64,000 bases of DNA from Candidatus Omnitrophota bacterium (GCA_023819375.1 JAMWDI010000004.1:130190-194189); one strand, 5' to 3'. Counted from the stretch's first letter, positions 295 through 24,439 are shown. Notes: a model not told the origin generated them from the letters alone. Program-made: numbers and translations.

Positions 295-887
295 TTTATT
301 TTTAAAATTTTTTGAATTTGAAATCTAAAATACCAGTTTTTTTCTGGATTTTTTTTTAAAAAATTAACAATATCTTTAGAAATCTTTTTGTCATTATTAA
401 GTGGTTGTAAAATAACAGGACTTTCTATTTTTCTATCAATAAATTCAAAAGTCTTTTTATTAATAATAACATATTTAAACTCATTGGCTACTTTTTTAAA
501 TTTGTTGTCGTAACCTGAAGGATGATAAATTTTACCTTCTTCTTTTGGACTTACCGTTATCCAATGAAATTTTATATCTCTCCATATAGTCCCATTTGTT
601 TCAACTGATATCCAGTAGTTTTTTCTTTTAAGGAATTCAAAGAGATATTCTATTTCCTGTAAATAAGGTTCTCCTCCTGTAAAGCACACTCTTTTGCAAT
701 CAAATTTTTCTACCTCTTTTAATATTTCTCTTGCCTCCATTTCTTTACCATTTTCCCAAGCATATTTTGTATCACACCATGAACATCTTAAATTGCATCC
801 TGTAAATCTTATAAAAACAAATGGCAATCCCTGAAGTAATCCCTCTCCCTGAATAGAATAAAAGATCTCATTTATCCGATATATCAT
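291..887 (-). CDS. queE: 7-carboxy-7-deazaguanine synthase QueE (radical SAM)
   Basis: MIYRINEIFYSIQGEG...CNLRCSWCDTKYAW matches the QueE N-terminus and its CxxxCxxC cluster motif. I chose the start at 887 (MIYRINEIF) rather than the track's 968. Translationally coupled to queC. Confidence 0.8.
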   Translation of the reverse strand: MIYRINEIFYSIQGEGLLQGLPFVFIRFTGCNLRCSWCDTKYAWENGKEMEAREILKEVEKFDCKRVCFTGGEPYLQEIEYLFEFLKRKNYWISVETNGTIWRDIKFHWITVSPKEEGKIYHPSGYDNKFKKVANEFKYVIINKKTFEFIDRKIESPVILQPLNNDKKISKDIVNFLKKNPEKNWYFRFQIQKILKIK

Positions 888-911
888 TTTCAATCCAGAA
901 ACTTTAAAATA

Positions 912-940
912 ATTTAAATAACTATATCTTTTACTGTCAA
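912..940 (-). promoter_or_regulatory. Candidate sigma70-like promoter for queE-queC: TTGACA, 17 nt, TTAAAT on the minus strand
   Basis: Reverse complement of 935-940 is TTGACA. A 17-nt spacer follows. Reverse complement of 912-917 is TTAAAT, about 24 nt upstream of the queE ATG. Confidence 0.3.
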
Positions 941-1003
941 ATTTTTCACAATATACAAAACTTGTCAAAAAAAATTGATCATGGTAATATATAAAAATAG
1001 GTT

Positions 1004-1076
1004 CCGGTGTAGCTCAACGGTAGAGCAGGCGGCTGTTAACCGCAAGGTTGTAGGTTCGAATCCTACCACCGGAGCC
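1004..1076 (+). tRNA. tRNA-Asn (anticodon GTT)
   Basis: Cloverleaf read by eye. Acceptor TCCGGTG pairs with CACCGGA. D-arm GCTC/GAGC. Anticodon stem GGCGG/CCGC with loop CTGTTAA (GTT). T-arm GTAGG-TTCGAAT-CCTAC. Discriminator G, then CC, then a T-run. The architecture matches E. coli tRNA-Asn, which also starts with U. Confidence 0.85.
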
Positions 1077-1213: not shown

Positions 1214-3103
1214 TTAACCAAGGGTGAAAGATATAGGGGTTTTTGTTAACCAACTTATAATAATCCATAAACCAGCAGCAGTGAAACTTCCAAAAACCAT
1301 CCCAAGGAAAAATATTTTTACTGTAGAGTAAACTTTTGCTCCACCGTATTTTAATATTACTGTCTTTGCTATCCAAGCAAGAAAAATAGAAAACCAAGTA
1401 TGATAAATAGGATGGGGTATTCCAATAGTAAGTCCAATAGGTGATATAGGCCATCCAGGAATTTTACTTCTTGCTAAAAGAATTAAAATCATTAAGAGTG
1501 CTCCAACTATAGCAAATAAAAACTGTTTTTTACCGAAGATTACAGGATCTCTCATTATGTTTTTTATATACTCAGCCATAAAACTTGATGCATATCCGAA
1601 TTGCCAGGAAGACAAATTTATTCCGCCAAATTTATAAGCAAGGAAAAGAACTGTAATTGTTGAACTTATTAAAGTAAATATTATAGAAAGGAAAATGCCT
1701 AAAAGGAGTTTATTTAAATTTAGTTTAAAATTGTTAGCAAGTTTCAATCCATTAGATGTTGAAGCCATAACAGAAGTTCTAATGTCTGCAGCCCAAGGGA
1801 AAGTTAAACCGAGAGAAACCAATCCTTGATTTCCAATTAATTTGGAACCAAACGTATAGATTGTTACTGCTGAAGGGATAATTGGAGCCCTATAATATGC
1901 AAGTCCTGTTTGTGAAATAATTCTTGTTAGTCCAAGGAAGATAAGAATAGTTATTATAATAAAGTATATGGAAATTGAGAGTTTAAGCCCTGATTTACTT
2001 ATCCACCAAACACTGAAGATAAAGCAAAAAATAAATCCCCAGAAAGAAATTTTGTATAAAAATTTTTCTTCTTCCATATCTTTTATTTTTCCTATGCTAA
2101 TTAGAAATATCTGTTTTAAATGTCTTCTTGCAAACCATAAACAACTTAATGATAAAATCATTAAAGCACCGAAGGACTGAAAAGCAACTTCTTCACAGGC
2201 TGGATCTGAATAGGGAAGAAACATTCCTATAGAATAACCAGTCATTTTTAAGAAACCAGTTTCAAGAATAAAGATAAAAGCAAAAAGCCAAACACTTAAA
2301 AGAACATCTTTTGGTATTAAAAAAGCAAGTCCAATAACTTCAAATCTAACAGATAATATTAAAGAAATTGAGCGCCTGAAGATAGGGAGAGATTTACTAA
2401 GCACAGGGCCTTTAAAAATAGGAAAAAGATTTGAAAGTCCAATAAGAGAATAAAGGATAAATGGAATAAGAAAGCCAAGATAAAATAACTTATTTTTATG
2501 GATTGGATTTTCTTCATTTGCCATTTCAATAACAGGTTCAGTTAAGGGATAAGTTAATTTTTCTCTTTCAATCCACTGCTTACTTAACATTAGAATTAGA
2601 AAAATTAACAAAAAATAAAAAATAATTATGAATATGTACCAATTAAATAAAGGAGTTATCCATTGATTCCATGGAATTTTTGTATTTTTAGGAAGTCCTT
2701 CATATAAATACCAAATTGTTTTGTAATCCTTTGGAAATAAATGGGATGGTAAGTAAGGATGAATCATTTCATCCCATCTATTAGTTGGTGTTGCATAGTA
2801 AAAAATACCACCAAGAAGACCTATTAAATTCATAGTAAATCCCCAAGATGGAATAGCGCAAGCAACAATCATCATTATATAAACTGTAATAAGTTCAGAT
2901 GGTGTTAAATATAATTTTTTTATAAATTTTTTACTGAATTGATTAAAAAGTAGGATATAAATAAAAAAAATAAAAATTGCCCAACCAGTTGAATAATCAG
3001 CGGCTAAAGGAGAACCATGGATATAAAGAACATTTAAAGGTTCAAGGACTCCAATCAAAATACAAAAAATTATACCAATTATTATTGATTTTAAAGAAAC
3101 CAT
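1214..3103 (-). CDS. Polytopic integral membrane protein of unknown function (about 14 predicted TM helices)
   Basis: 629-aa ORF made of hydrophobic helix-length segments throughout. I recognise no family. Confidence 0.55.
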   Translation of the reverse strand: MVSLKSIIIGIIFCILIGVLEPLNVLYIHGSPLAADYSTGWAIFIFFIYILLFNQFSKKFIKKLYLTPSELITVYIMMIVACAIPSWGFTMNLIGLLGGIFYYATPTNRWDEMIHPYLPSHLFPKDYKTIWYLYEGLPKNTKIPWNQWITPLFNWYIFIIIFYFLLIFLILMLSKQWIEREKLTYPLTEPVIEMANEENPIHKNKLFYLGFLIPFILYSLIGLSNLFPIFKGPVLSKSLPIFRRSISLILSVRFEVIGLAFLIPKDVLLSVWLFAFIFILETGFLKMTGYSIGMFLPYSDPACEEVAFQSFGALMILSLSCLWFARRHLKQIFLISIGKIKDMEEEKFLYKISFWGFIFCFIFSVWWISKSGLKLSISIYFIIITILIFLGLTRIISQTGLAYYRAPIIPSAVTIYTFGSKLIGNQGLVSLGLTFPWAADIRTSVMASTSNGLKLANNFKLNLNKLLLGIFLSIIFTLISSTITVLFLAYKFGGINLSSWQFGYASSFMAEYIKNIMRDPVIFGKKQFLFAIVGALLMILILLARSKIPGWPISPIGLTIGIPHPIYHTWFSIFLAWIAKTVILKYGGAKVYSTVKIFFLGMVFGSFTAAGLWIIISWLTKTPISFTLG

Positions 3104-3310
3104 GTTAGAGTTATTTTACTTATAATTTTTCTGATGTCAAAATTAACTCTCTTAAATATTTGTCTTTCTAATTCTCTCATTTTTCTTAATCTTCAACTTT
3201 TCTCTTACGTTTTCTCTGCATGTAAAATTTCCATCCCTTTACAATATTTTTCCCTTGATTTTCCTTTAAATTTGAGACACATTCCTTAAAAGTTTTAACA
3301 GTTTTAAAAA

Positions 3311-4465
3311 TTATTTTTTCTGACTATTGTTTAACTTTACATTGTTAAAAAGAATATTTTTGCAATTGCGACATATTATACTATTATCTGAAAAATTTTC
3401 CATTTCTAAATTATTAAATGAGATATTATGAATTTCTATTTCGCTGTTTCCCTCTATAGTTAAAGGTCCTCCACTTTTTATAATTTTTATATTAGAAAAA
3501 TTTATATCTGAAATTCTTTCCAATTTAATTCCTTCTTCAACAGTTATCCATATAGGATTTAATTTGCTTTCAATTATTACATTTGAAAATAAAATATCAT
3601 GAACATTTGCGCAACCCTTACTATTTTCCAGTAAATAAACTTTTGGAAATTGAAATATAATTCCTCTTGTTCCTTCTATTATTAAATTTTTAAATACACA
3701 ATTTTTTATTTCTCCATCAGAAGGACATTCAATTCTTATTCCATTACAATCTGTTTTTAAAATACAATTTGAAACAGTTATATTTTCACAACTAACCTCT
3801 TCTTTATAAAATTGTTTTATACAACGAACTGCAATACAATCATCTTGAGTATCCATAATACAATCACTTATAACAACATTTTTACAACTGTCAACATCTA
3901 TTCCATCTATGTTTCTCATTCTTCTATCCCCGTATATTTTAACCTTATGAATATTTATATTCTCGCATTTCATTAACCAGATTGTCCAACAAGCAGAATT
4001 TACAAAAGAGATGCCTTCAAAAAAAACATTTTTACAATTATAAAACATAACTATTCTTGGCCTTGGAATTTCTGGTTTTTTATAATAATCTTTATAAAAA
4101 GAAAGTCCAGAACCATTTATTTCTCCACTTCCTGTTATTCCTAAATTTTCAGAATCAACTGCAATAATAAGTGCATTTTTTGTAATTTCTTTTTTGGGCT
4201 CTATCTTTTCCATAATAAAACCTTCTGCATCAAGTTCCTTATAGTCATTTAAACTTTCACTTCCGATAATTTTGCTTCCGTTTTCAAGATAAAGTTCAAC
4301 ATTACTTTTAAGAAAAATTGTTCCTGTTTTATATATTCCAGGTTGAAATATAATTCTTCCTCCTCCATTTTTATAACAGGTATCTATTGCTTTTTGTATC
4401 TTTTCTGTATTAATCGTTTTTCCATCTGGTCTTACCCCAAATTCAGTTATTCTATAAGTACTCAT
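3311..4465 (-). CDS. Glycoside hydrolase family 28-like (polygalacturonase / pectate-lyase-fold beta-helix) protein with no signal peptide
   Basis: N-terminus ITEFGVRPDGKTINTEKIQKAIDTC..GGGRIIFQPGIYKTGTIFLKSNVELYLE is typical of GH28. Later N/D/C-rich repeats (NITVSNC, NCVFKN, SNVIIE) fit the parallel beta-helix fold. SD AAAGGAAAG lies upstream. Confidence 0.65.
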   Translation of the reverse strand: MSTYRITEFGVRPDGKTINTEKIQKAIDTCYKNGGGRIIFQPGIYKTGTIFLKSNVELYLENGSKIIGSESLNDYKELDAEGFIMEKIEPKKEITKNALIIAVDSENLGITGSGEINGSGLSFYKDYYKKPEIPRPRIVMFYNCKNVFFEGISFVNSACWTIWLMKCENINIHKVKIYGDRRMRNIDGIDVDSCKNVVISDCIMDTQDDCIAVRCIKQFYKEEVSCENITVSNCILKTDCNGIRIECPSDGEIKNCVFKNLIIEGTRGIIFQFPKVYLLENSKGCANVHDILFSNVIIESKLNPIWITVEEGIKLERISDINFSNIKIIKSGGPLTIEGNSEIEIHNISFNNLEMENFSDNSIICRNCKNILFNNVKLNNSQKK

Positions 4466-4560: not shown

Positions 4561-5532
4561 TTATTTATCTTTCGGTTTTACTCCCGGTATTCCCATCCCT
4601 TTATTTCTTCCCTTTTCATAGTATCCTTTATAAACATTACTACATATTCTCCATTCAGAAGAAGTTTCTTTACAATCTTTGTATCCACATATTTCTTTTG
4701 CTGATTTAATCCTCTTGAACAACCTTTCAAATAATTTCTTTGCGGTTAATATCATACCATAATTCATATCAAGTTTGAATAAAACATCTAAATCTTTTTT
4801 CTCATCTCTTAAGTTCATAGAAAAACCACCTATACAAAGATTTTTTTCAGGTATATAAGCACTACAAGGAGGACATATCATACAGGGACCTTCAATAAGT
4901 TTAATTGGTATTTCTGGATTTTTTCTTATTCTTTCAATAACTTCATAAAGATTATCCTCTAATATAGGTTGGTTTTTGCTTTCGGAAAAGCAAACCATAC
5001 ACATAAGATGATGGGGTCTTATTTTTAGAATTTTTGATTTATAAATTTTTTTAACAGATATCTTTTTTGATTTTTTTCTTTCTTCAAGTGAACGACCCGG
5101 AAAAATTGAATTAATACCTTCTTCTCTTAATTTTTCATAATCTGATTTTTCTGAATATTGACATCCTTTCCAGATTTTTGAATTTGGAATTCCTTTACAT
5201 ATCTCTTTTGTAGTTTCAATTGAATTAAATAATTTTTCTATAATAAATCTTGCAGGCATAATCGCTCCAGGGAAAAGGCCTATTAAACGAAGTATATCAA
5301 AATCCTGTTTTTTTCTGAATAATTCTTTTTTGTTTTTGATATTTTGAGGATTTTGATAAGAATAACTACCAGCAACTCTACAAACCAACATGATAGGTCT
5401 TTCTGGATTTTTAATTATTTTGTCAAGAATTGCTCTCAATTTTTTATCTTCTTTTGAATTTTTAAATCCTCTCTTTAATTTACATAAAATACAAAATAAT
5501 TGATAAGGATGAACTTTAATATATTTTCTCAT
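4561..5532 (-). CDS. Cys-rich protein with two tandem DUF1284-like repeats (RPHHLMC ... GPCMICPPC)
   Basis: Second half carries IRPHHLMCMVCF ... IPIKLIEGPCMICPPCSAY, which resembles the DUF1284 signature RPHHLLC...CxxCP. The first half is a degenerate copy (VHPYQLFCILC ... RPIMLVCRV). Family assignment is from memory. Confidence 0.4.
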   Translation of the reverse strand: MRKYIKVHPYQLFCILCKLKRGFKNSKEDKKLRAILDKIIKNPERPIMLVCRVAGSYSYQNPQNIKNKKELFRKKQDFDILRLIGLFPGAIMPARFIIEKLFNSIETTKEICKGIPNSKIWKGCQYSEKSDYEKLREEGINSIFPGRSLEERKKSKKISVKKIYKSKILKIRPHHLMCMVCFSESKNQPILEDNLYEVIERIRKNPEIPIKLIEGPCMICPPCSAYIPEKNLCIGGFSMNLRDEKKDLDVLFKLDMNYGMILTAKKLFERLFKRIKSAKEICGYKDCKETSSEWRICSNVYKGYYEKGRNKGMGIPGVKPKDK

Positions 5533-5534
5533 AA

Positions 5535-6599
5535 TTATCCCTTCTTAACTTTATATGGCAATAACCATCTTTTTCTTTTTATAAATTCCCCTCCTTTAAA
5601 TCTCTGTTCAATAACTTCTTTTTTCTCAAGGTAATTAAAACAACTTCTCATACAACCTCTTGAACCACATATTCCAAAACTTCCACCTTCTCCCCATTTT
5701 TGTAACATGGCATGCCCTTCTATGATATAACCCGATGGGAACTCCTCTGTTTTTCTCCATCTTCCTGTTGATAAAGTCCAGCAAAATTTATATGCAGTCT
5801 CTTCTGAAAAATCCTGTTTTCTTGCGTCTATATTCCAGCCAGGGAAATCTTTATGTATAAAAGGAGAAACTCTTGAATCACCCCCATGATAACTTAATGT
5901 ACATTTTCCAAGATGTATATCAGCCCATTCATAAACATAGTCCTCAATTTTTATCTGGATTTTTTTATTTTCTTTTATATGAGGTATTGCATAAGAAGGA
6001 CAGTCATTTACACATTCCATACATCTTTTACAGATACTACCTGGTTTTATAAGTGGATCTGGTTCAACTTCAAGGTCAGTTATAATTGCATGTAATCTCT
6101 GTCTTGGTCCAAATTTTTTAGTTAAAAAAACTTTACTCCATCCAATTTCCCCAAGTCCAGCACAAATACCTGCAATCCTTATAGCAAGATGAACATCAGG
6201 AGGTGGGAAATTTTTTCTTAATGGTTTTACTGGAGGTTGGGCTTCTGGTACTCCTGGATAATAAGGGACTGCTTCATATCCAAAATCTTCAATAAAACAG
6301 GCAAGTTGATAAAGAGGTTCAGGAATAAAAAAAGTATTTAAAAGACCATGATAATCAAAATAAGTATAAGAAATCCAGTTTGTCCCTTCTTCTATTCCAC
6401 GCCAACCACCCCTTAATATTCTTTTTCCAACAACTATAACTGTTTTACCTTCTGGAAATATGTTTTTCGGATTCATTCTTTCTGGAGCATTTTTGAATCT
6501 TTCAATATTTGCAAAACCAATTAAATCAAGTCCAAACTTATAACCTGTTTCTCTTATTAACTCTTTCGTTAGTTTTTTCATTTTTCTCCTATTCTTCAA
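5535..6599 (-). CDS. QueG / reductive-dehalogenase-superfamily Fe-S protein, paralog 1
   Basis: LDLIGFANIERF ... GKRILRGG.RGIEEGT ... GYEAVP ... AGLGEIGWSKVFLTKKFGPRQRLHAIITDLEVEPD ... CKRCMECVNDCPSYAIP. Compare QueG AGIGFSAKNCMITTPEYGS..LAEMITN..EPD and CxxCxxCxxxCP. The start could be M7 at 6581. Confidence 0.6.
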   Translation of the reverse strand: MKNRRKMKKLTKELIRETGYKFGLDLIGFANIERFKNAPERMNPKNIFPEGKTVIVVGKRILRGGWRGIEEGTNWISYTYFDYHGLLNTFFIPEPLYQLACFIEDFGYEAVPYYPGVPEAQPPVKPLRKNFPPPDVHLAIRIAGICAGLGEIGWSKVFLTKKFGPRQRLHAIITDLEVEPDPLIKPGSICKRCMECVNDCPSYAIPHIKENKKIQIKIEDYVYEWADIHLGKCTLSYHGGDSRVSPFIHKDFPGWNIDARKQDFSEETAYKFCWTLSTGRWRKTEEFPSGYIIEGHAMLQKWGEGGSFGICGSRGCMRSCFNYLEKKEVIEQRFKGGEFIKRKRWLLPYKVKKG

Positions 6600-7437
6600 T
6601 TATCTCGCCACTTTTATCAATTTTCCATACAGGTCTTTTTCTAAATTTTTCATTAAATAAATTTTTTATTCTTTTTGTTTCTTCAAGATGAAAAAGACAG
6701 GTTCTTGAGCATAAAGCAGCAATTCTATCTGGTTTTCCATTTTCATAATACATATTTGGTAAGACACCGTTTTTACATTTTTTACATATTTCATAATCAA
6801 TTTCTGCAACTATCATCTTTTTATCACATATTTCAATTTCTTTCTCTTTTTCCTTTATTGCTCCAAGTGGACATATCTTTAAACATTCTTTACATAAATC
6901 ACATATATTTTCTTTCTTTATTTGATCTGGTTCAATTTCTGCATCTGTAAGTATTATTTGAAATCTTTGCCTTGGACCAAATTCTTCAGTTAAGAATATC
7001 CTACAATATCCAATTTCTCCAAGTCCTGCTCTAATTGCTGTATCTTCAATATCTATTAAAACATTTGGTGCTGGTTTCCCTTTTTTAACAGGTATTCCCA
7101 TTGGTGGAACTTCAATTGGTATATCAGGCAAAGGAACTGCTTCATATCCGTTATCCTCAAGAAATTCACATATTTTAAAAGTTGTTAAAGCAAGTATTCT
7201 ATTGTTTAACCATTGATATCCATATAGATTATACAGGTGAAATTGTGTTCCTTCTTCAATTCCTCTTAAAGCCCCTCTTGTTATTCTCTTTCCTATTACA
7301 ATTATACTTTTTACTTCTGGGAATATACTTTCTGGGTGGTGTTGTTTGTTAATTCCTTTAAACCTATCTATGCTTGCAATACCTATTAAATCTGCTTTAA
7401 CTTCTTTTGCAAACTCTATTAATCTTTCTTTTTCCAT
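6589..7437 (-). CDS. QueG / reductive-dehalogenase-superfamily Fe-S protein, paralog 2
   Basis: ADLIGIASIDRFKG ... GKRITRGALRGIEEGT ... GYEAVPLP ... AGLGEIGYCRIFLTEEFGPRQRFQIILTDAEIEPD ... CDLCKECLKICPLGAI. Confidence 0.6.
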   Translation of the reverse strand: MEKERLIEFAKEVKADLIGIASIDRFKGINKQHHPESIFPEVKSIIVIGKRITRGALRGIEEGTQFHLYNLYGYQWLNNRILALTTFKICEFLEDNGYEAVPLPDIPIEVPPMGIPVKKGKPAPNVLIDIEDTAIRAGLGEIGYCRIFLTEEFGPRQRFQIILTDAEIEPDQIKKENICDLCKECLKICPLGAIKEKEKEIEICDKKMIVAEIDYEICKKCKNGVLPNMYYENGKPDRIAALCSRTCLFHLEETKRIKNLFNEKFRKRPVWKIDKSGEIIEE

Positions 7438-7453
7438 AAATAAAATCTTCCTT

Positions 7454-8485
7454 TTAAAATTTTTTAACTATGACTTCTTTAAAAACATTTTCACAGTAAG
7501 AACAATTTTGACATAGTTTATTACATTTTGTTATTTTTTCAAACCAATCATCTGGAAATCTTGAATTTTCAATTATATAAGGATATAAAATTTTACTATG
7601 AGATGGTTCAAATAAATCAAGTAAGTTGCCTTGATATTTTTCATCATAATATGCTTTTATAACTTTTTCAGGGTCCTGATTTGTCCTTGTTGCAAGTTTA
7701 ACAACATCAAAATATTTTTCATAATGATGCAAATCTTCTGGCCTTATCCACGAAGAATATGAAATTAAATATTTCCAGTTTTCTTTTTCTTTGTAAAAAG
7801 ACCAGCAATTACCAGGTATATTATCTGTCAAATTTGCTTTTGTAAATATTTCTGCTTCATGTGAAATAACATTATCATGAAAAGATTGAACAGGGCAGAA
7901 ATTTATACAACCACTATTTACAAGAATAGATAATTTTTTCCCTTTTTTATTACACCAATCTTTAATTTCTTCTATTCTTTCAAAATCCCTATTATACTCT
8001 CTTTGCATAACAAAATCATCAAATAAATCTTCTAATTGCTCCATCTGTTTTATTTTTCCGATTCTCATATTTACACTTGCTCTTACTTCAATATCTTTAA
8101 AATTTTTCTTAATTATATATGCAATAACTGGAGAGAAAGAAGTTATAGAATCAAGACCTATATTTTCCTGTAAATAATCAATAATTGAAATAACCATATT
8201 AGTAAGATTTATTGATAATGAATTTTCACCCCAGCAGGAAGCATTCAAAAGTAAATTAAGTTTTATTCCAAGTTTTTTTATTTTTTTTAATTCATATTCA
8301 AGTTGTTTCTGTACAAACCAATTTATATATCCAACCTTCTCAGCAATCGGTCCTCTTCCGCTGGGTAAATTAAGCCATGGGAAATAAACTTCTTCAATTC
8401 TATCCTTATATTTTTCAACAATATCTGAAAAAATTTGCTCCTCTTCTTTAAACTGATATCCAATAGAAAATTTTATTTTTCCCAT
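7454..8485 (-). CDS. Cys-rich hypothetical protein, possibly a peptidase-U32-like TIM-barrel Fe-S protein
   Basis: 343 aa with about 13 Cys. There is a C-terminal CNKLCQNCSYCENV (CxxxCxxC...C) and SGCINFCP. Loose positional resemblance to the U32 family (KLNLLLNASCW; DIEVRASVNMRIG; LSILVNSGCINFC versus VHGALC..SGRC). I could not verify this. Confidence 0.3.
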   Translation of the reverse strand: MGKIKFSIGYQFKEEEQIFSDIVEKYKDRIEEVYFPWLNLPSGRGPIAEKVGYINWFVQKQLEYELKKIKKLGIKLNLLLNASCWGENSLSINLTNMVISIIDYLQENIGLDSITSFSPVIAYIIKKNFKDIEVRASVNMRIGKIKQMEQLEDLFDDFVMQREYNRDFERIEEIKDWCNKKGKKLSILVNSGCINFCPVQSFHDNVISHEAEIFTKANLTDNIPGNCWSFYKEKENWKYLISYSSWIRPEDLHHYEKYFDVVKLATRTNQDPEKVIKAYYDEKYQGNLLDLFEPSHSKILYPYIIENSRFPDDWFEKITKCNKLCQNCSYCENVFKEVIVKKF

Positions 8486-9387
8486 TCAATATACCATACC
8501 TTTCTTTTTCTAAAAGGTTCCTTAAATTTGTTTTTTAATTTTCCTTCTTTTTCAAGATGTATCATACATGCTCTTATACACCCTCTTGCTCCTTCAATTG
8601 CTCTGGAATATATAATGACAGAACTTAGTTCTCCTATAAATGGATTGTATTTTTTATAAGGTGCCAATCCTTGAAATCCTTTTGTGCATGCGTCAACGTT
8701 TAGTTTTCCCCATTCTACTTCAGTTCCTATCGCTTTAAATCTAACTTTAACCGTTTCTTTTAAACTTATTGCTCCTGCTGAACATTCTTTTACACATAAC
8801 ATACATCTATCACAAATTGGTGGCCCTTCATAAATAGGATCTGGCTCAAGAGGAGCATCTGTTAAAATACATGCAAATCTCTGCCTTGGCCCAAATTCAG
8901 GTGTTAATAGTAGTTTACTATATCCAATCTCTCCAAGTCCTGCAAGGTATGCAGCAATCCTAAAATGAATAAATACATCAGGAGCAGGTTTTTCAGGAGA
9001 TACAGAACAAGACCAGTTTTCTTTGGGTTTTCCTGTTGCATAATCAATAGCGGGCCAGTTGTAATAATCATTAGGTATTGGTGTTGCTTCATATCCATAA
9101 TCTTCAATAAATCTCGCCAAATGATAAAGAATAAAAGGCATATAAATCATATTTATACTTCCATATCCCTGTGAAGAATAGGAGAGAAAATATGTTCCTT
9201 CCTCTATACCCCTTAAAGTTCCTCTTGGTATTCTTAAAGCAAGTACTATTAAAACTTTAGCATCTGGATTTATATATCTTGGGTCCATTTGCTTTGGTGC
9301 TCCTTCAAATCTGTTTACATCTGCAATTCCAACCAAATCTGCTCCTAATTTTTTTGCTACTTCTTTTACTTTTTTTGATGTTAACAT
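8473..9387 (-). CDS. QueG / reductive-dehalogenase-superfamily Fe-S protein, paralog 3
   Basis: AKKLGADLVGIADVNRFEGAPKQMDP ... LRGIEEGT ... GYEATPIP ... AGLGEIGYSKLLLTPEFGPRQRFACILTDAPLEPD ... CDRCMLCVKECSAGAI. Confidence 0.6.
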   Translation of the reverse strand: MLTSKKVKEVAKKLGADLVGIADVNRFEGAPKQMDPRYINPDAKVLIVLALRIPRGTLRGIEEGTYFLSYSSQGYGSINMIYMPFILYHLARFIEDYGYEATPIPNDYYNWPAIDYATGKPKENWSCSVSPEKPAPDVFIHFRIAAYLAGLGEIGYSKLLLTPEFGPRQRFACILTDAPLEPDPIYEGPPICDRCMLCVKECSAGAISLKETVKVRFKAIGTEVEWGKLNVDACTKGFQGLAPYKKYNPFIGELSSVIIYSRAIEGARGCIRACMIHLEKEGKLKNKFKEPFRKRKVWYIEWEK

Positions 9388-9403
9388 TTTTACCTCCTCC
9401 TTT

Positions 9404-10906
9404 TTATCTTTTAATTCTTATTTCATCTTCTCCATCTTTTGTTTCTACAACAAACTCAGCATCTCTTGGAATATCTTGAGGACTTCCTTTTACATAACAT
9501 AGTGGCTCTTTATTTAAATTTATTCCTTCTTTTATAAGTTTTTCTCTTAAAATTTCTGTATCAAGTTTTCTTGGCGAAATATTTTCTTTTATTGAAAGAG
9601 CAGACGCAGTTCCAGCAGCATGTCCCATAGTTATACATGTCATTATCAGTCGTGTTCCTGACTGTGCTTCAAAATCAGTTGAAATACATCTACCTGCAAC
9701 AAGAAGATTATCTATTTTTTTAGGAATAAGACATCTATAAGGAATTTCATAATACTGGCCTGGTTTTAAGTATGCTCTATATTTCCCTTTTGGATTATTT
9801 TTTACACAACATATTCTTCCATCTTCTCTTTCTTTATCTGTACAAAAAGCAGGTTCAATTGGTTGAGATAAATGAGTATGTTTTATATGAGGAAGATCAT
9901 CTATTGGATTATGTATATCAAAACCATGAGTGTCTCTTGCTATTGCATCTTTAAATTTTCTTGCAAGAGCTATATCTTTTCCTGTTAATTTATATTCACC
10001 AACTATCCTCCTTGACTCTCTAATCCCCAAAATTGATGCAGTATAACTTAAAAATGCCTTTTCAAATCCAATTACATTTTCTCTATAAAATTCAACAAGT
10101 TTCTGTATCTGGTCTCTCTGTTCAATTACTATTCTTGTTAAATCTTCTGCATCTGTTGTTCTACATTTTCTACTATGGGCAGTACACACATATACTTCTG
10201 TTTTTTCTTCTGGTCTATTTGGGAATGATCCTAAATATCCTTTTTCTACAAGTCGTGGCAATTTCCCTTCTTTTACTGCTTTTTCTATTTTCATCTGAAC
10301 AGTTGAGTAAAAGTCAGATGAAGAAAATGAATTTAAATCAACATTTGACATAACAAAATCAAGAGAAACTGCTTGATTATAACCATCCATCAAATCCCAT
10401 CCAGTCTCAACAGGAACTCCTGCAAAATATGAAATTTCTGCATCTCCTGTACAATCAATAACTCTTTTTGCTAAAATTGCACTTCTTCCTGAAATATTTT
10501 GAATTATTACTCCTTTTATTTCATTATTTTCAACTATTGAATCAATAACATAAGTCCAGTATAAAATTTTAACACCTGACTCAATTGCCATTTTTTCCAT
10601 GATATATTTTGTTATTTCAGGATCACAAATTCTATTTTCTCCAAGTCCTCTTTTTTCCTTTAACCTTTCAAGCAATTCTTTACCAATTCCTTCAGGATAA
10701 CCAGCCATATAACATACAAGACCTAAAGTTACAAGTCCACCAAGAGCACCATATTTTTCAACAAGCATTGTATTTGCTCCATTTCTACTTGCACTTATAG
10801 CAGCACCAAATCCAGCAGTTCCTCCACCAACTACAAGAACATCAACTTCATATTTAACTTTTACTTCTTCATTAAACTTTATTTTTCCTCCTTCTATCTT
10901 TACCAT
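9404..10906 (-). CDS. FAD-dependent oxidoreductase (FAD_oxidored / HI0933-related family)
   Basis: VLVVGGGTAGFGAAISASRNGANTMLVEKYGALGG is a Rossmann GxGxxG motif. It is a paralog of the protein at 35030-36385, with a shared C-terminal RCIS...GTR/IRVM.TC...GHAAG. Confidence 0.7.
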   Translation of the reverse strand: MVKIEGGKIKFNEEVKVKYEVDVLVVGGGTAGFGAAISASRNGANTMLVEKYGALGGLVTLGLVCYMAGYPEGIGKELLERLKEKRGLGENRICDPEITKYIMEKMAIESGVKILYWTYVIDSIVENNEIKGVIIQNISGRSAILAKRVIDCTGDAEISYFAGVPVETGWDLMDGYNQAVSLDFVMSNVDLNSFSSSDFYSTVQMKIEKAVKEGKLPRLVEKGYLGSFPNRPEEKTEVYVCTAHSRKCRTTDAEDLTRIVIEQRDQIQKLVEFYRENVIGFEKAFLSYTASILGIRESRRIVGEYKLTGKDIALARKFKDAIARDTHGFDIHNPIDDLPHIKHTHLSQPIEPAFCTDKEREDGRICCVKNNPKGKYRAYLKPGQYYEIPYRCLIPKKIDNLLVAGRCISTDFEAQSGTRLIMTCITMGHAAGTASALSIKENISPRKLDTEILREKLIKEGINLNKEPLCYVKGSPQDIPRDAEFVVETKDGEDEIRIKR

Positions 10907-13125
10907 TTTTTCTTCTCCCCTTTATACTTACAATTTCTTATACATTCTTCACAAATATTTAAATGCCTTTTTTGAACCCCTAATTTTAAATTCATTAAAT
11001 TTTCAATTAGTTTTCTGGTTTTATTTTTTGTAGGAACTTTAAAATCTACATTTATACCCATATATTTTGGCCCTTCTTTACCTATAAGTCCATATCTTTT
11101 AGCCCAATCACAAGAAAATTCATCAATTACAGGTATTTCAAAAATTTTATTTTCTATTTCAATTTTCACATTTTTTCTTTTTATTGCAGAGGTTGGGCAG
11201 TTTTTTATACATTCATAACAATCTTCACAAAAATTTTCACCATTATAAAGAGGATCATTTTCAAACTCAAAATCAGTTATTATACTAAAAAATCTCTGTC
11301 TTTGCCCAAATTCTTTAGTTATAGGTACTCCATTTTTTCCAATATATCCAAGTCCTGAAAGCAAAACAGAATAAGAATTACTTCTATTATCTGGCAAAAA
11401 CCCTCTTGAACTTAAAATTTTTGATGAAAGACCAGTTAAATCATAAGAATAAATTCCTTTATATCCACAATCATTTAATTTTTTTATAATTTTATAGGCA
11501 ATGTCTGTTAAAAGATTTAATGATTCAAATTGACTGAAAGCATAAGGTCCAACTGTTTCTGCAGGTGTTATTTTTGCTGTATCAAGACAAGCATCGGGAT
11601 AATGAAGTCCTATAACAATTACTGATTTTGCATCTTTTAAATAATCTTTTGGTTCTTTTAAATTAATTTTTTCTCTTTTAATTATAGGACTTATAGGTGC
11701 ATAAATGTGAGATATATCATATACCATTTCAACTTCTTCAGGCAAATTAAATTTTTTTAAAAATTCTTTTTTAAACTTCTCAAATCTATTGATGTTGAAA
11801 AATCCAACTAAATCTGCACCACATTCTTTACAGAAATTCCTAAATTTTTCTTTTTCAATTTTTTCTTTTTCAATTTTCCTTTTAATTTTAATTTCTTTTA
11901 GTTTTGCACTTACAAGGATTGTTGAGAAAATTGTATCTTCTTCCCATATCCCAATTTTTTGAGCGGTAAGATTATCATCTATCTTTGTTCCAGTTATTCC
12001 AGAATATCCATTTATATCAAAATAATGTGCAATATCAAAAGAGGCGTATTGTATTAATCTATGTTTTATATAATTTTCAATTTCTGTGTCATAATCTTTA
12101 GGTTTTTTTATTCCTATTGAAATTACTGAAGAAACATCTGGCAAATGTAATTTGGGATTTATTGAAAAATCATTTTTAAAGAAATTCACATTCTTTATAC
12201 AAAGGAAATCAATCAAATATTTATCAAAAATTTTCTTAATTTCCTCAATTTTTATTTCCTTCTTTTCCTTTTTTCTTCTTGGTGCTCTACAATAATTTTT
12301 ATCATAATATCTTTTACTTGGAACCATACAGAATTTTAGGCAACATCCTTCTTCTCCTGCAAAAAGTCCATATTTTTCAAGATTTTCAATTATTACATTC
12401 TCATCTATTTTTTCAGGTATTTTTAAAAATAGATTAAGACAGAAATTTTCAGCCCATCCACATCTCCATTTATTTGTATCTGGGAACTTAAATATTCTAC
12501 CATCTATTTCTATTTCATTTATTTTTTTGACTTCCTTTCTAAATGAATCTGTTGGACAATTTTTAACACATTCCATACATCTATCACATAATTTTTCTCC
12601 TTCATACATTGGATCTGGAATAAGTTCTGCTGATGTAATGATTGTAACAAGGCGAACCCTTGGTCCAAATTCTGGATGCAAAAATAAGCCACTCCATCCA
12701 ATTTCACCAAGTCCACAAGCAACAGCAGCATACCTGTGAGCAATGTCTGGAGCAAAATGTATTTTTAAATCCTTATATCCTTTATATCTCCAAATATTGC
12801 TTGAAACAATAGGAAGTGTATCATAACCTTTGTTTTCAAGAAATTTTGCCATTAAAAATGAAATATCATCAAGTTTTGGATTCATAACTGAACTTTGACT
12901 TCCATAAGGACCTATATTATGAGGAGTGGGCTCTCCACCAAGTTCAACACTGGCATCAAGATGATGGATACCGCAAACAATAACACTCTTCGCACTTGGC
13001 AATAAATCTTCTGGACTCATTCTTTTTGGAGCATTTTTAAATCTCTCAATACTTCCAATCCCTACTATATCTGCACCAAGTTTTTTTGCATATTCTTTAA
13101 CTTCTTTTGTTAAATTTTCATTCAT
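10900..13125 (-). CDS. Two-domain fusion of QueG / reductive-dehalogenase-like Fe-S modules (741 aa)
   Basis: N-terminal domain: ADIVGIGSIERFKNAP ... ACGLGEIGWSGLFLHPEFGPRVRLVTIITSAELIPD ... CDRCMECVKNCPTDS. C-terminal domain: ADLVGFFNINRFEKF ... SGLGYIGKNGVPITKEFGQRQRFFSIITDFEFENDP ... CEDCYECIKNCPTSAI. The C-terminal domain matches QueG AGLGWIGKN..ITPEFGS very closely. Confidence 0.65.
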   Translation of the reverse strand: MNENLTKEVKEYAKKLGADIVGIGSIERFKNAPKRMSPEDLLPSAKSVIVCGIHHLDASVELGGEPTPHNIGPYGSQSSVMNPKLDDISFLMAKFLENKGYDTLPIVSSNIWRYKGYKDLKIHFAPDIAHRYAAVACGLGEIGWSGLFLHPEFGPRVRLVTIITSAELIPDPMYEGEKLCDRCMECVKNCPTDSFRKEVKKINEIEIDGRIFKFPDTNKWRCGWAENFCLNLFLKIPEKIDENVIIENLEKYGLFAGEEGCCLKFCMVPSKRYYDKNYCRAPRRKKEKKEIKIEEIKKIFDKYLIDFLCIKNVNFFKNDFSINPKLHLPDVSSVISIGIKKPKDYDTEIENYIKHRLIQYASFDIAHYFDINGYSGITGTKIDDNLTAQKIGIWEEDTIFSTILVSAKLKEIKIKRKIEKEKIEKEKFRNFCKECGADLVGFFNINRFEKFKKEFLKKFNLPEEVEMVYDISHIYAPISPIIKREKINLKEPKDYLKDAKSVIVIGLHYPDACLDTAKITPAETVGPYAFSQFESLNLLTDIAYKIIKKLNDCGYKGIYSYDLTGLSSKILSSRGFLPDNRSNSYSVLLSGLGYIGKNGVPITKEFGQRQRFFSIITDFEFENDPLYNGENFCEDCYECIKNCPTSAIKRKNVKIEIENKIFEIPVIDEFSCDWAKRYGLIGKEGPKYMGINVDFKVPTKNKTRKLIENLMNLKLGVQKRHLNICEECIRNCKYKGEKKKW

Positions 13126-13874
13126 ATTTTATCTCCAAGTTTTAATGTAATTTCTTCACCTGCTTTTTTTAATTCATTTATAATTCTTTCTCTATTTCCT
13201 TTTCTAAACCTTACTGTTGGTAGATAAACACCAAGAGAGGCAATAATTTTTTTATCAGAACTGAAAATTGGAACTCCAATTGCTACTGTTCCTTCTTTTT
13301 CTATAATTTCAATTTTCCTTTTTCTTATTTTTTCAAATTCCTTTTTTAAATCTCTAAAATTTCTAATATTGTTCCAGGTTTCTTTGGGATATCCATTCTT
13401 TCTTATATACTCCTTAACCTCTTTTTCAGGTAAATATGAAAGCAGAATTCTTCCTGTTGCAGTTGAATAACAGGATGCTTTCTGGAACATATTCAAATTT
13501 ACATTTAAAAGATTATTTTCATAACTAACTTGTGCAATTGTATATCTTTCCCCCTTATAAAAAATACCAAGAACAACAGATTCTTTTATATTTTCTGCCA
13601 AATTTTTCATAACAGGTTCAGATATTTTAATTAGAAAATTTTTGCTTAAAAGAGGATAAAAAATATTTAATAATTTTTCAGAAATCCTATATTTTTTTGT
13701 ATTTTTGTCTTTCTCAAGGTATCCGAGAGAAAGTAATGTTGATAAAAGAGAGTGGGTTGTAGTAATTTTTAGATTTAAAAATTTTGAAATTTCTCCAACA
13801 CTTAAACCTTCATTTTCAGAATTTGAAATTATCTCTATTATTTTCATTATTTTTTCTACAACTTTTACTTTCAT
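13122..13874 (-). CDS. IclR-family transcriptional regulator
   Basis: I chose the start at MKVKVVEKIMKIIEIIS..GLSVGEISKFLNLKITTTHSLLSTLLSLGYLEKD, a winged HTH. An IclR-type effector domain follows. Its stop overlaps the start of the downstream gene (ATGA), so it heads the operon. Confidence 0.6.
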   Translation of the reverse strand: MKVKVVEKIMKIIEIISNSENEGLSVGEISKFLNLKITTTHSLLSTLLSLGYLEKDKNTKKYRISEKLLNIFYPLLSKNFLIKISEPVMKNLAENIKESVVLGIFYKGERYTIAQVSYENNLLNVNLNMFQKASCYSTATGRILLSYLPEKEVKEYIRKNGYPKETWNNIRNFRDLKKEFEKIRKRKIEIIEKEGTVAIGVPIFSSDKKIIASLGVYLPTVRFRKGNRERIINELKKAGEEITLKLGDKI

Positions 13875-13998
13875 TTTACGATATTGTCGTATTATTACAA
13901 TATTATCATAAAAATTTTTCTTGTCAAATTTTTTTCTCTTTTGGGTTAAAATATAATATCCAGATGGAATAAGGTATAATTTAGTAAAAGGAGATAAA

Positions 13999-14490
13999 AT
14001 GAGAAATTTATTTTTTCTTTTTTTTCTTTTTACACTTATGGGGTGTGCATCTAAAGAAGCAAAAAAAGCACCCGAGGTAGTATTTAATACAATTGATGGG
14101 AAAGTAATCAAAATAACAGATTATAAAGGAAAGAAAATTGTTTTAAATTTCTGGTCTGTTAATTGTTCTGCCTGTATAAGGGAAATACCAGAAATTGTGG
14201 ATTTTTATAATGAAAATAAGGAAAAAGTTGGAGTTATTAGTGTTGTTATTTTAAGTTCTAAAAAAGATGTTGAAGATTTGATAAAAAAATATAAAATAAA
14301 TTTTCCAATCTGTTTAGGTGATGAAAAAATTGCTGATTTATTTGGTGGAATAATATTTTTACCTACTACTTTTATAATTGACGAAGATGGATATATAAGA
14401 TTAAAGATAAATGGAGCGATAGGAAAAGTTGAATTGGAAAAAATTTTAAAATCTCTTGATTATAATGAGAAGGCCAAAAAAACAGAGTAA
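13999..14490 (+). CDS. TlpA/ResA-like thiol-disulfide oxidoreductase lipoprotein (thioredoxin fold)
   Basis: Lipobox LFTLMGCAS. LNFWSVNCSACIREIPEI carries a CxxC motif. SD AAAGGAG at 13987-13993. Confidence 0.7.
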   Translation: MRNLFFLFFLFTLMGCASKEAKKAPEVVFNTIDGKVIKITDYKGKKIVLNFWSVNCSACIREIPEIVDFYNENKEKVGVISVVILSSKKDVEDLIKKYKINFPICLGDEKIADLFGGIIFLPTTFIIDEDGYIRLKINGAIGKVELEKILKSLDYNEKAKKTE

Positions 14491-21618: not shown

Positions 21619-21642
21619 TTTATAAAAAATTAAGGGGGTAAA

Positions 21643-22962: not shown

Positions 22963-22976
22963 AAAAGGAGAAAATA

Positions 22977-23720: not shown

Positions 23721-23744
23721 TATTTTTATTTAAAGGAGGACAAA

Positions 23745-24425: not shown

Positions 24426-24439
24426 AAAAGGAGAAAAAA

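Follow-up and report, generated by a model that had tools for sequence, protein, structure and literature searches.

The closest described relatives of the proteins considered here are the class-III cobalamin/[4Fe-4S] oxidoreductases, namely QueG and the reductive dehalogenases RdhA. In QueG, the D-Y-H active-site motif is strictly conserved and two [4Fe-4S] clusters are held by C184, C187, C190, and C243 and by C194, C210, C236, and C239, while a Tyr located above the corrin is retained in every solved class-III enzyme (PMC4646009). Arg141 of QueG lies under the corrin, and the Bacillus subtilis enzyme ends in a HEAT-like tRNA-binding domain (residues 257 to 385) (PMC5175355). The RdhAs considered here are PceA of Sulfurospirillum and Dehalobacter, and NpRdhA; dehalogenators typically carry several rdhA paralogs in one genome (PMC12219181). 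A further point of comparison is the U32 family (UbiU/UbiV, TrhP, RlhA, and the structure Mk0906), whose members, as far as characterised, act as Fe-S hydroxylases rather than as methyltransferases (PMC6747719, PMC10990095), with the four-Cys motif CX6CX15CX3/4C (PMC6747719).

The DNA analysed was a single window of 64,000 nt from an uncultured Omnitrophota bacterium. Gene calling recovered the eight minus-strand genes of the preliminary description, in the same order and at the same coordinates, as a tightly packed operon spanning positions 4561 to 13874. The features of the operon and its flanks are as follows:

13900-13927, minus strand, candidate sigma-70-like promoter (TTGACA-16-TAATAT with TG), a consensus match alone
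13122-13874, minus strand, IclR-family regulator, 250 aa
10900-13125, minus strand, double RdhA/QueG-like module of 741 aa (N-terminal module, about residues 1-310; C-terminal module, about residues 410-741)
9404-10906, minus strand, FAD-dependent oxidoreductase (PF12831), 500 aa
8473-9387, minus strand, single RdhA/QueG-like module Q304, 304 aa
7454-8485, minus strand, U32-like TIM-barrel Cys protein, 343 aa
6589-7437, minus strand, single RdhA/QueG-like module Q282, 282 aa
5535-6599, minus strand, single RdhA/QueG-like module Q354, 354 aa from a TTG start
4561-5532, minus strand, Cys-rich protein with a tandem double DUF1284, 323 aa
3311-4465, minus strand, GH28 glycoside hydrolase, 384 aa
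1214-3103, minus strand, DUF6785/DUF6784 polytopic membrane protein, 629 aa

The junctions from the IclR gene to the DUF1284 gene measure -4 (the overlap of the IclR gene and the 741-aa gene), -7, +16, -13, +16, -11, and +2 nt. The tight spacing claimed earlier stood (-13 to +16 nt), but ATGA or GTGA overlaps do not account for all of the junctions. If Q354 starts at the ATG at 6581 (348 aa), as other gene callers chose, the -11 junction becomes approximately +7. An ORF check found no internal stop codon in any operon gene, and the GH28 gene follows the DUF1284 gene after 95 nt, as had been described. The promoter candidate sits just upstream of the IclR start; since promoter-like sites in the AT-rich region were not enriched over shuffles (84 found, 74.6 expected), the evidence for it is weak. 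The DUF6785 gene has a promoter-like site of its own (3113 to 3140). A QueE-like radical SAM gene and a tRNA-Asn gene were also seen just beyond the operon, and MttB-family and MtaA-like genes elsewhere in the window.

The operon encodes five modules (741N, 741C, Q304, Q282, and Q354), both halves of the 741-aa protein aligning with the single modules. All five have in common D17, G20, R26, GLGxIG, FGxRxR, and seven invariant Cys, and their pairwise identity of 27 to 46% (BLAST E values of 1e-17 to 1e-65) is far beyond chance. The count of five copies and their nature as intact, divergent paralogs in a compact IclR-headed operon agree with the preliminary description, whose motifs needed small amendments: 741C reads GLGYIG and FGQRQR, 741N reads FGPRVR, the first motif ends in GF in Q354 and 741C, and the ferredoxin motif of Q304 is CxxCxxCxxxCS, not CP. 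Q282 and Q354 are deep paralogs, and Q304 is a member of a pan-phylum clade paired with the U32-like gene.

The modules belong to the class-III superfamily of RdhA and QueG: RdhAs are their best matches in both sequence and structure, and a nitroreductase-type B12-binding domain is followed by a ferredoxin-type domain. The naming as QueG or RdhA by profile, in turn, did not hold. With TIGR00276 (QueG, curated cutoff of 200 bits), the 741-aa protein scored 87.8, Q304 25.4, Q282 34.8, and Q354 29.2 bits, the best score being that of 741N (E of 6.8e-25); with TIGR02486 (RdhA, cutoff of 160 bits), the scores were 48 to 85 bits, the highest for the 741-aa protein; and PF13486 gave no match in the modules at E<=0.01. 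Identity with either enzyme by curated models was therefore rejected. The HEAT-like domain of QueG is missing, and its D-Y-H motif is not conserved, the family consensus being N-x-F-P-W and the Q304 sequence NDYY; QueG is moreover a housekeeping enzyme, whereas the family genes are multicopy and regulated. CblC (MMACHC), also among the matches and of the same fold, lacks a ferredoxin domain and is much less similar. As part of the overall explanation developed below, it seems somewhat probable that the modules form a distinct, uncharacterised third branch of the superfamily.

We then determined residue conservation over 100 family sequences. The seven Cys were conserved in 100% of them, whereas position 265 was Glu in 67% and Cys in 24%; Q354 carries Cys here, where most members have Glu, and this Glu/Cys could be, judging by the alignment, an eighth cluster ligand. 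Relative to RdhAs, the second Fe-S motif has shrunk to C...(E/C)x4CxxxC, the canonical CxxCxxxC being kept by 741C only. R170 was found in 99 of the 100 sequences and in all five modules; it aligns with R305 of PceA and K488 of NpRdhA and so matches the catalytic basic residue in the FGPxx(R/K) segment of RdhAs. R143 (94%) aligns with Arg141 of QueG, as seen for 741N from sequence alignment alone, and D137 (96%) is one position off the residue aligning with the catalytic Asp134. In Q282, the Arg and Asp are replaced by E at 143 and N at 137, and the MAFFT alignment of 741C gives gaps or S at these positions. Because Q282 and 741C have no Arg143 equivalent, neither catalysis nor corrinoid binding need apply to all of the modules. 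The corrin-facing Tyr was not mapped with confidence in the family, Y70 and Y75 being candidates only. From the fold and these few aligned residues we infer that the modules bind cobalamin.

The U32-like gene, a mere list item in the preliminary description, turned out to be the best conserved of the family's partners: it adjoins a family gene in 37 of 79 loci and lies directly downstream in 29 of the 50 loci with adequate flanks, approximately 40% of the well-flanked loci being without it. Its orthologs are 44 to 51% identical across phyla. The 343-aa protein has a U32-type TIM barrel, with U32 as its best structural match; its PF01136 match is subthreshold (19.6 versus 22.4 bits, E of 5.9e-4, residues 102 to 178 only), and no NCBIfam model matched. 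Its eight invariant Cys (C84-x108-C193-x3-C197-x29-C227 and C321x3C325x2C328x2C331) depart from the four-Cys motif of the U32 family and include an extra C-terminal Cx3Cx2Cx2C, and an SCP2/UbiT-like partner is absent. No description of a U32 protein paired with an RdhA/QueG-like one, and no publication on the family, was found in the literature searched.

At 50% identity (E<1e-30) the family resolves into approximately 400 clusters from at least ten phyla, and the arrangement, implied earlier to be singular, is not: operons with an IclR regulator, a double module, a single module, the U32-like gene, further modules and, in some, the FAD protein recur in related Omnitrophota/Ratteibacteria-like contigs, and the operon type is conserved across related lineages. 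The double-module architecture (725 to 836 aa) accounts for about one-third of the best 150 cluster representatives, and family genes are multiplied in tandem in 21 of 79 loci. The related operons each end in a different glycoside-hydrolase-like gene, and the GH28 gene is kept at the same position in L001 and L002. Around the family as a whole we found sugar transporters, glycoside hydrolases, sulfatases, and SusC/SusD; the 111 same-strand neighbours include SSF transporters (6), GFO_IDH_MocA (6), GH2 (3), DUF6259 (3), GH39, GH95, CBM9, and heparinase. A rumen Bacteroidales MAG has the order Q-U32L-SSF-SusC-SusD, another Q-U32L pair lies beside two sulfatases and a ulvan lyase, and in the cultured Oligosphaera ethanolica GH43 is near the pair. 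The hosts are fermenters from the gut, the rumen, digesters, and hot springs, and some family members lie inside polysaccharide utilisation loci; the neighbourhoods are diverse, and a single substrate class is not apparent among them. This carbohydrate context, an association by proximity in MAG contigs and by raw counts that was touched upon earlier through GH28 only, is the strongest functional clue.

Pfam and NCBIfam searches confirmed the earlier naming of the IclR, FAD-dependent, DUF1284, and GH28 products. The regulator exceeded the thresholds of PF09339 (HTH_IclR, 33.4 bits) and PF01614 (IclR_C, 89.5 bits) and reached no NCBIfam equivalog cutoff, its closest models, PcaR/PobR and KdgR (E of 1e-34), both being far below theirs. 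The flavoprotein (PF12831, E of 2.5e-105) matched solved structures at its FAD-binding N terminus only; homologs occur near the family in 8 of 86 loci, and it is a candidate electron-input protein. In the DUF1284 protein (PF06935, E of 3.8e-9), for which no relative with a solved structure was found, both halves share 31% identity (E of 8e-16), which indicates a tandem domain duplication; three related operons extending past the Q modules (L012, L015, and L094) have a second PF12831 gene in its position, and in L094 this copy is the last gene of the operon. The GH28 protein (PF00295, 83.2 bits against a threshold of 22.9, E of 2.4e-23) reached no specific NCBIfam equivalog; its best solved relative is 3jur, a Thermotoga exo-poly-alpha-D-galacturonosidase (E of 2e-33). 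Its N terminus is not hydrophobic and has no signal peptide, the protein being cytoplasmic, and its gene probably belongs to the transcription unit of the operon or to a linked one. The DUF6785 protein (PF20581, E of 2.4e-108; PF20580, E of 6.6e-23), with its many hydrophobic segments, is a candidate importer.

The occurrence of relatives beside sugar-degradation genes in many anaerobic phyla points to a reductive step in carbohydrate breakdown, and the modules are most likely cytoplasmic corrinoid/Fe-S reductases whose substrates are small molecules derived from glycans. By analogy with solved relatives, each of these soluble modules would bind a base-off corrinoid on top of a two-cluster Fe-S chain, through which low-potential electrons, perhaps from the flavoprotein, the double module, or the Cys-rich DUF1284 protein, would reduce cobalt to Co(I). 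The Co(I), assisted by the conserved Asp137, Arg143, Arg170, and Tyr residues, may then act on a small substrate in the cytoplasm by two-electron reductive elimination or substitution. The Q304-type module most likely forms a working pair with the TIM-barrel Fe-S (or Zn) protein of the U32-like gene directly downstream. The gene neighbourhood suggests the catabolism of imported glycan fragments as the setting, here because of the KdgR/PcaR-like IclR protein, the cytoplasmic GH28, and the putative importer, and elsewhere because of the SSF transporters, glycoside hydrolases, sulfatases, and SusC/SusD. At the Omnitrophota locus the fragments are probably pectin-type uronate oligomers. Corrinoid use by the Omnitrophota host is plausible: its window contains MttB-family and MtaA-like genes, and in a Lentisphaerae MAG BtuF-like and CobB genes stand directly upstream of a family member. 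We hold this explanation as a whole, distinct-branch corrinoid/Fe-S reductases in the catabolism of imported glycan fragments, with moderate confidence. A bolder proposal, put forward tentatively, is that the family with its U32-like partner is an unrecognised class of carbohydrate-active enzymes, corrinoid/Fe-S reductases of anaerobes that use Co(I) chemistry on sugars derived from glycans. If so, reductive deoxygenation, opening of anhydro or ether bridges, O-dealkylation, and desulfonation would be candidate reactions, and paralog arrays would provide differing specificities or successive steps, like arrays of sulfatases or glycoside hydrolases. A multistep pathway was suggested earlier, but the paralogs might just as well represent parallel specificities.

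The leading alternative, although an unlikely one, is that corrinoid binding was lost and that the modules are plain Fe-S (possibly flavin) proteins for electron transfer or substrate activation. A site-differentiated proximal cluster might then, for example, bind the substrate directly, as in IspG/IspH or aconitase, and catalysis proper would be left to the U32-like protein or the flavoprotein. The proximal cluster of the family has three invariant Cys only, besides the Glu/Cys at 265. The fold goes back to that of FMN nitroreductases, the Arg under the corrin is missing from two of the five modules, and genes for B12 uptake or synthesis adjoin the family in only 1 of approximately 80 loci. 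The Cys count, the missing Arg, and the rarity of B12 genes also speak against the main explanation, as do the unmapped Tyr, the diverse neighbourhoods, and the loci lacking a U32-like gene.

Two further readings appear improbable, and equally so. The modules might be reductive dehalogenases of the cytoplasmic catabolic type, to which NpRdhA and BhbA belong, that strip halogens from natural organohalogens accompanying algal or plant glycans, the paralogs serving different halogenated substrates. RdhAs as the best matches, the retained FGPRxR-type motif with its catalytic basic residue, and the multiple paralogs known from dehalogenator genomes (PMC12219181) would fit this. So would solubility: a scan for RR plus a hydrophobic region found no Tat signal or transmembrane segment in any module, so that the modules, soluble like catabolic RdhAs, differ from the respiratory type with its Tat signal and RdhB, and no small membrane-protein gene of the RdhB kind lies within the operon. 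Against it stand the low TIGR02486 scores and the missing PF13486 match, the module length (approximately 300 aa versus 443 to 700 aa for the RdhA targets), the lack of an NpRdhA-type NAD(P)H reductase, fused or adjacent, and a context of carbohydrate catabolism rather than organohalide respiration, organohalides being no obvious nutrient in fermenter habitats and polysaccharide utilisation loci. The U32-like partner, to our knowledge, is part of no known dehalogenase system.

The other reading has the module as a self-reactivating corrinoid carrier in alkyl or methyl transfer, without net reduction: a methyl or other alkyl group would pass to Co(I) from a sugar that is O-methylated or otherwise etherified, the U32-like barrel would be the substrate-activating or acceptor methyltransferase, and the Fe-S chain would merely re-reduce Co(II). 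The known corrinoid methyltransferases (MtaA/URO-D, MtaB, MttB, MeTr, and MetH domains) have TIM-barrel folds, and in many of them Cys residues bind zinc; the partner, too, is a TIM barrel, and it has eight invariant Cys. CblC, which shares the module fold, dealkylates cobalamins. URO-D/MtaA-like genes occur no more than 10 kb away in 7 of approximately 80 loci and make up 3 of 111 operon partners, MttB-family and MtaA-like genes are present in the window, and no B12-binding corrinoid protein was matched by Pfam among the window proteins scanned individually. We know, however, of no class-III enzyme that performs methyl transfer; the conserved Asp/Arg/Arg set looks like the sites at which QueG and RdhA carry out acid-assisted reduction; the URO-D linkage is infrequent; genes for folate or thiol acceptors are not consistently nearby; and the characterised U32 members are hydroxylases (PMC6747719, PMC10990095).

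That one or more modules are the epoxyqueuosine reductase of the organism, or act with the U32-like protein on free queuosine-type nucleosides or another RNA modification, is very improbable, as the RNA-modification roles of QueG, RlhA, and TrhP, the QueG-model match of 741N, the nearby QueE-like and tRNA-Asn genes, and the label "epoxyqueuosine reductase" given to some homologs by JGI pipelines are set against QueG-model scores of 25 to 88 bits, the missing tRNA-binding domain (PMC5175355) and D-Y-H motif, and multicopy genes under IclR/AraC control within sugar-uptake and glycoside-hydrolase loci, including one with SusC/SusD. In public annotation the family proteins are otherwise "hypothetical," and PGAP names some U32-like homologs "U32 family peptidase."

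The operon at 4561-13874 of the minus strand represents an unannotated branch of the superfamily of class-III cobalamin/[4Fe-4S] oxidoreductases (the RdhA/QueG superfamily), a branch marked by a conserved U32-like partner and by its carbohydrate context. The ORF listing confirmed the compact minus-strand block with tight junctions reported in the preliminary description, and the Pfam/NCBIfam check of the neighbors matched IclR, PF12831, DUF1284, GH28, and DUF6785/DUF6784. The genes are the following, the Q proteins being RdhA/QueG-like modules named by length:

13122-13874, minus strand: IclR regulator, 250 aa (ORF listing, Pfam/NCBIfam)
10900-13125, minus strand: Q741, double module with halves 741N and 741C, 741 aa (ORF listing)
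9404-10906, minus strand: PF12831 flavoprotein, 500 aa (PF12831, E 2.5e-105)
8473-9387, minus strand: Q304, single module (ORF listing)
7454-8485, minus strand: U32-like protein, 343 aa (ORF listing)
6589-7437, minus strand: Q282, single module (ORF listing)
5535-6599, minus strand: Q354, single module (ORF listing)
4561-5532, minus strand: DUF1284-type protein, 323 aa (Pfam/NCBIfam)
3311-4465, minus strand: GH28 (Pfam/NCBIfam)
1214-3103, minus strand: DUF6785/DUF6784 membrane protein (Pfam/NCBIfam)

The seven junctions among the first eight genes measure -4, -7, +16, -13, +16, -11, and +2 nt and are followed by gaps of 95 nt before the GH28 gene and 207 nt before the membrane protein gene. 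No product of the operon block contains a stop codon, and the DUF1284 protein consists of the same domain twice in tandem. The proteins, encoded on a 227-kb contig of a Candidatus Omnitrophica MAG, are deposited as MCM8772549-MCM8772555 under the names "hypothetical protein" or "DUF1284 domain-containing protein," and several Logan metagenome contigs carry identical or near-identical loci. As a mechanical ORF, the IclR gene extends over 13122-14111 (minus strand), with a TTG at 14111, and would overlap a divergent redoxin gene at 13999-14490 (plus strand); the ATG start at 13874, giving 250 aa, is the choice of other gene callers and agrees with a promoter-like site at 13900-13927. The promoter and terminator scan gave no excess over the shuffled background, and the Rfam scan of the window, in which a tRNA-Asn was the sole match, revealed no riboswitch and no hint of a ligand.

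Q304, Q282, Q354, 741N, and 741C share a full-length alignment, with BLAST E values of 1e-17 to 1e-65. Invariant in all five (Q304 numbering) are D17, G20, R26, G150-L-G-x-I-G155, F165-G-x-R-x-R170, T176, and D183, as well as seven cysteines (C192, C195, C198, C202, C234, C270, and C274), while a Tat signal or hydrophobic segment is absent from all of them. In this alignment the motifs listed earlier proved essentially right, with small deviations in some modules. Since every module is full length, free of stops, and retains all the motifs, the possibility that these are pseudogenised fragments was rejected, and the domains are intact. A recent duplication was rejected as well, because the paralogs are 27 to 46% identical in pairwise comparison and deeply branching. 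In the neighbor-joining tree, Q282 and Q354 lie on deep branches confined to Omnitrophota/Ratteibacteria-like lineages plus one Prolixibacteraceae sequence, Q304 lies within a pan-phylum clade, and both halves of Q741 fall outside that clade. The paralogs are old rather than recent duplicates.

A profile built from 39 sequences of the Q304-type family matched solved structures solely among class-III B12 enzymes, namely PceA of Dehalobacter (E 1.6e-19), PceA of Sulfurospirillum (1.5e-15), NpRdhA (1.4e-10), and QueG (3e-9); the superfamily originally assigned was the right one. These enzymes are known only to reduce organohalides and to complete the synthesis of queuosine. The modules reached 25 to 88 bits with TIGR00276 (QueG; cutoff, 200 bits) and 48 to 85 bits with TIGR02486 (RdhA; cutoff, 160 bits), thus staying below both cutoffs, and had no match to PF13486 in the Pfam scan. 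Unlike QueG, they lack the C-terminal HEAT-like tRNA-binding domain (PMC5175355), since they end about 30 residues past the last Cys, and unlike RdhA, they lack the Tat signal, the RdhB anchor, and the fused reductase. With the curated models below cutoff and these features missing, the family belongs to neither RdhA nor QueG by their own criteria and is about equally distant in fold from both. No function-revealing domain fusion was found among the odd-length relatives checked, which were fragments or double modules only.

We then determined the conservation of residues bearing on the mechanism in 100 family sequences from other genomes and in HMM alignments (Q304 numbering). R170, in the FGPRxR segment, was conserved in 99% of the 100 sequences and aligns with R305 of PceA and with K488 of NpRdhA, the residue altered in the K488Q variant 6zy0. 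R143 (94%) aligned to Arg141 of Bacillus subtilis QueG, a residue situated 4 Å below the corrin, where it obstructs the lower axial site (PMC5175355), and D137 (96%) is in the loop preceding R143, one residue off the position aligning with the catalytic Asp134 of QueG. A Tyr above the corrin is kept in all solved class-III enzymes (PMC4646009); Y70 and Y75, conserved in at least 98% of the 100 sequences, are candidates for its counterpart. In S. thermophilus QueG, the distal cluster is held by C184, C187, C190, and C243 and the proximal one by C194, C210, C236, and C239 (PMC4646009). Seven of these eight ligands have equivalents in the family, and the eighth position is non-Cys. Residue 265 (window, ~8593-8595), five before C270 of the CxxxC pair, is Glu in 67% of the family sequences and Cys in another 24%, being Cys in Q354, and 741C keeps the canonical CxxCxxxC. 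These observations make a proximal cluster with Cys3-Glu or Cys4 ligation plausible and suggest that this cluster, the one closest to the presumed corrinoid, switches between the two across the family. In the MAFFT alignment, Q282 has E at 143 and N at 137, and 741C has gaps or S there; the modules are therefore not equivalent.

The family turned out to be widespread. A word-seeded HMMER search gave 4584 homologs at E ≤ 1e-3, and scanning all 1.84 billion representatives clustered at 50% identity gave 401 clusters with E ≤ 1e-30 (1865 with E ≤ 1e-10), with double modules of 725 to 836 aa making up about one-third of the best 150 cluster representatives. In GTDB (one genome per species), more than 535 relatives were confirmed, the best 80 of which come from Omnitrophota, Armatimonadota/"Zipacnadia," Kiritimatiellae, Lentisphaerae/Victivallales (among them the cultured carrier Oligosphaera ethanolica DSM 24202), Planctomycetota, Verrucomicrobiota, Clostridia, Bacteroidales, Spirochaetales, Anaerolineae, and WS1. 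The homologs are named "hypothetical protein," "ferredoxin," or, by JGI pipelines, "epoxyqueuosine reductase," and full-text literature searches aimed at the family or its parts found no published description. The supposition that the arrangement is unique was thus wrong: the operon is one representative, and a rich one, of a branch of the RdhA/QueG superfamily that is both widespread and unannotated. Nor is its organization without parallel, as had been thought: the neighborhood comparison found the same operon type (IclR, double module, [FAD], Q, U32-like, Q, Q, [Q], [FAD2], where Q is a family gene) in five further loci, L012, L015, L018, L092, and L094, all of them Omnitrophota/Ratteibacteria-like contigs. 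The gene downstream varies, being GH28 in the window and GHL10 in L094.

All ORFs of the fetched loci, 79 of them non-redundant, were searched with the window's proteins. Tandem arrays of two to five family genes occurred in 21 of the 79, and in 37 the Q304-type gene was immediately followed by a U32-like gene (29 of the 50 having at least 1.2 kb on both sides). Orthologs of the U32-like protein in Kiritimatiellae and another phylum are 44 to 51% identical to that of the window. Its profile barely touched the U32 protein 5d88 by sequence (E 0.05), and PF01136 stayed under the threshold. Eight cysteines are invariant (C84, C193, C197, C227, and the C-terminal C321x3C325x2C328x2C331). UbiU/UbiV (and, by inference, TrhP and RlhA) bind [4Fe-4S] via CX6CX15CX3/4C or CXnCX12CX3C and catalyze hydroxylations that need no O2, the oxygen coming from prephenate (PMC6747719, PMC10990095). 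Since the Cys spacing of these characterized proteins differs from that found here, we call the protein U32-like rather than a family member; the conserved pairing offers a new context for the poorly understood U32 family.

In other phyla, the same-strand operon partners (n = 111) were dominated by sodium:solute symporters (6), GFO/IDH/MocA (6), GH2 (3), URO-D (3), DUF6259/DUF5696 glycosidase-like proteins, GH39, GH95, CBM9, heparinase-like proteins, and parts of ABC sugar transporters. The order Q-U32-like-SSF-SusC-SusD was found in a rumen Bacteroidales MAG (L089), the pair adjoined AraC, two sulfatases, and an ulvan lyase in Caldicoprobacterales (L093), and GH43 was close to it in O. ethanolica (L048). 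Such gene proximity in the loci examined suggests an association of the family with carbohydrates. The regulators vary, with IclR in 13 of 86 fetched loci and AraC-type regulators adjoining family genes in others. Three linkages are weak leads to function. URO-D/MtaA-like genes lay within 10 kb of the family in 7 loci. A cysteate synthase equivalog (L057, 6607-7926; 478.7 bits, cutoff 324.9) was located, together with MFS and SSF transporters, between two Q-U32-like pairs and could tie the system to sulfite or organosulfonate handling; L065 and L069 encode homologs of this synthase, and all three loci are from Prolixibacteraceae MAGs. In the Lentisphaerae genome GWF2_44_16 (L008, 5131-9908), the only locus with B12 genes adjoining the family, an AraC regulator gene and the family gene are immediately preceded by genes for a BtuF/IsdE-like binding protein and for CobB (cobyrinic acid a,c-diamide synthase, E 2.7e-155). 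A glycyl-radical-enzyme activase (TIGR02494; 255.9 bits, above the cutoff) was divergent beside Q-U32-like-SSF in an Alistipes MAG (L081, 8940-9689), and its homolog was near the family in L076.

The interpretation with the most support is that of a soluble corrinoid/Fe-S reductase system, its cofactor and substrate both inferred, that would act on small molecules from imported glycans. Three features of the window suggest that these molecules come from pectin-type oligomers: the KdgR/PcaR-like regulator, the GH28 without a signal peptide, and the polytopic membrane protein next to it. The closest solved relative of this GH28 is an exo-polygalacturonosidase. The PF12831 flavoprotein, the double module, and the DUF1284 protein would be, by position, candidate electron-supply or maturation parts, and the chemistry could be QueG-like reductive deoxygenation, opening of ether or anhydro bridges, dealkylation, desulfonation, or dehalogenation. 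We consider it unlikely that the corrinoid has been lost and that a site-differentiated Fe-S cluster performs the chemistry instead. That the modules form a catabolic dehalogenase is quite improbable, as size, context, and partner disagree with it even though the fold and the FGPRxR segment agree, and a similarly small chance is given to the transfer of alkyl or methyl groups by the corrinoid, in which the TIM barrel would be a transferase-like partner. A QueG or RNA-modification role, to which the QueE-like gene and tRNA-Asn nearby would point, is very improbable, given the missing tRNA-binding domain and the multicopy genes within sugar-utilization loci.

If the reductase reading is true, the family would be a third class-III B12 branch, widespread, multicopy, and regulated within sugar-utilization loci of gut, rumen, digester, sediment, and hot-spring anaerobes, and thus an unrecognized B12-dependent step in anaerobic glycan turnover and a new reason for corrinoid competition in fibre- and mucin-degrading communities. 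A correct assignment would mend thousands of annotations, because the family is now "hypothetical" or mislabeled "epoxyqueuosine reductase," and O. ethanolica, being cultured, renders the question testable.

Just past the operon end, a QueE-like radical SAM gene (291-968, minus strand; 7-carboxy-7-deazaguanine synthase models E 5e-32 to 1e-24, all below the cutoff) adjoins tRNA-Asn(GTT) (1003-1076, plus strand), a queuosine-carrying tRNA type. Their position beside a QueG-like operon may be a coincidence, but they indicate that the organism probably produces 7-deazaguanines and hence requires some oQ reductase. A second PF12831 flavoprotein (35033-38385, minus strand; E 4e-105) is at one end of a long minus-strand cluster, beside genes for a BcrAD/BadFG-type activase ATPase and a DUF2229/HGD-D-like protein, which together resemble a 2-hydroxyacyl-CoA dehydratase and the protein that activates it. 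An MtaA/URO-D-like gene (50764-51774, minus strand) and an MttB-family gene (54763-56136, minus strand), both of corrinoid-dependent methyltransferase families, share a cluster with GH63/MGH1-like, Amidohydro_2, and AP_endonuc_2 genes; no window protein scanned individually had a Pfam match to a B12-binding corrinoid protein. Pseudopilin/T2SS genes (three T2SSE/MshEN ATPases, one T2SSF gene, and seven DUF1559/N-methyl pseudopilin-like genes), a set typical of PVC-type genomes, are scattered amid the sugar clusters (17036-26940 and 30057-30800, plus strand; 46089-46841 and 61192-61911, minus strand). A second beta-helix (pectate-lyase/RHGA-like) protein, a LacI regulator, and a 1149-aa GH123-like protein (26965-28635, 29012-30052, and 31571-35020, plus strand) point to more glycan-degradation capacity near the operon. 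Three GFO/IDH/MocA genes, two AP_endonuc_2 TIM barrels, a DegT aminotransferase, and a ceramidase-like protein are encoded at 38678-46087 and 56136-59303 (minus strand); near the family in other phyla, GFO/IDH/MocA was found in 10 loci and AP_endonuc_2 in L010 and L054.
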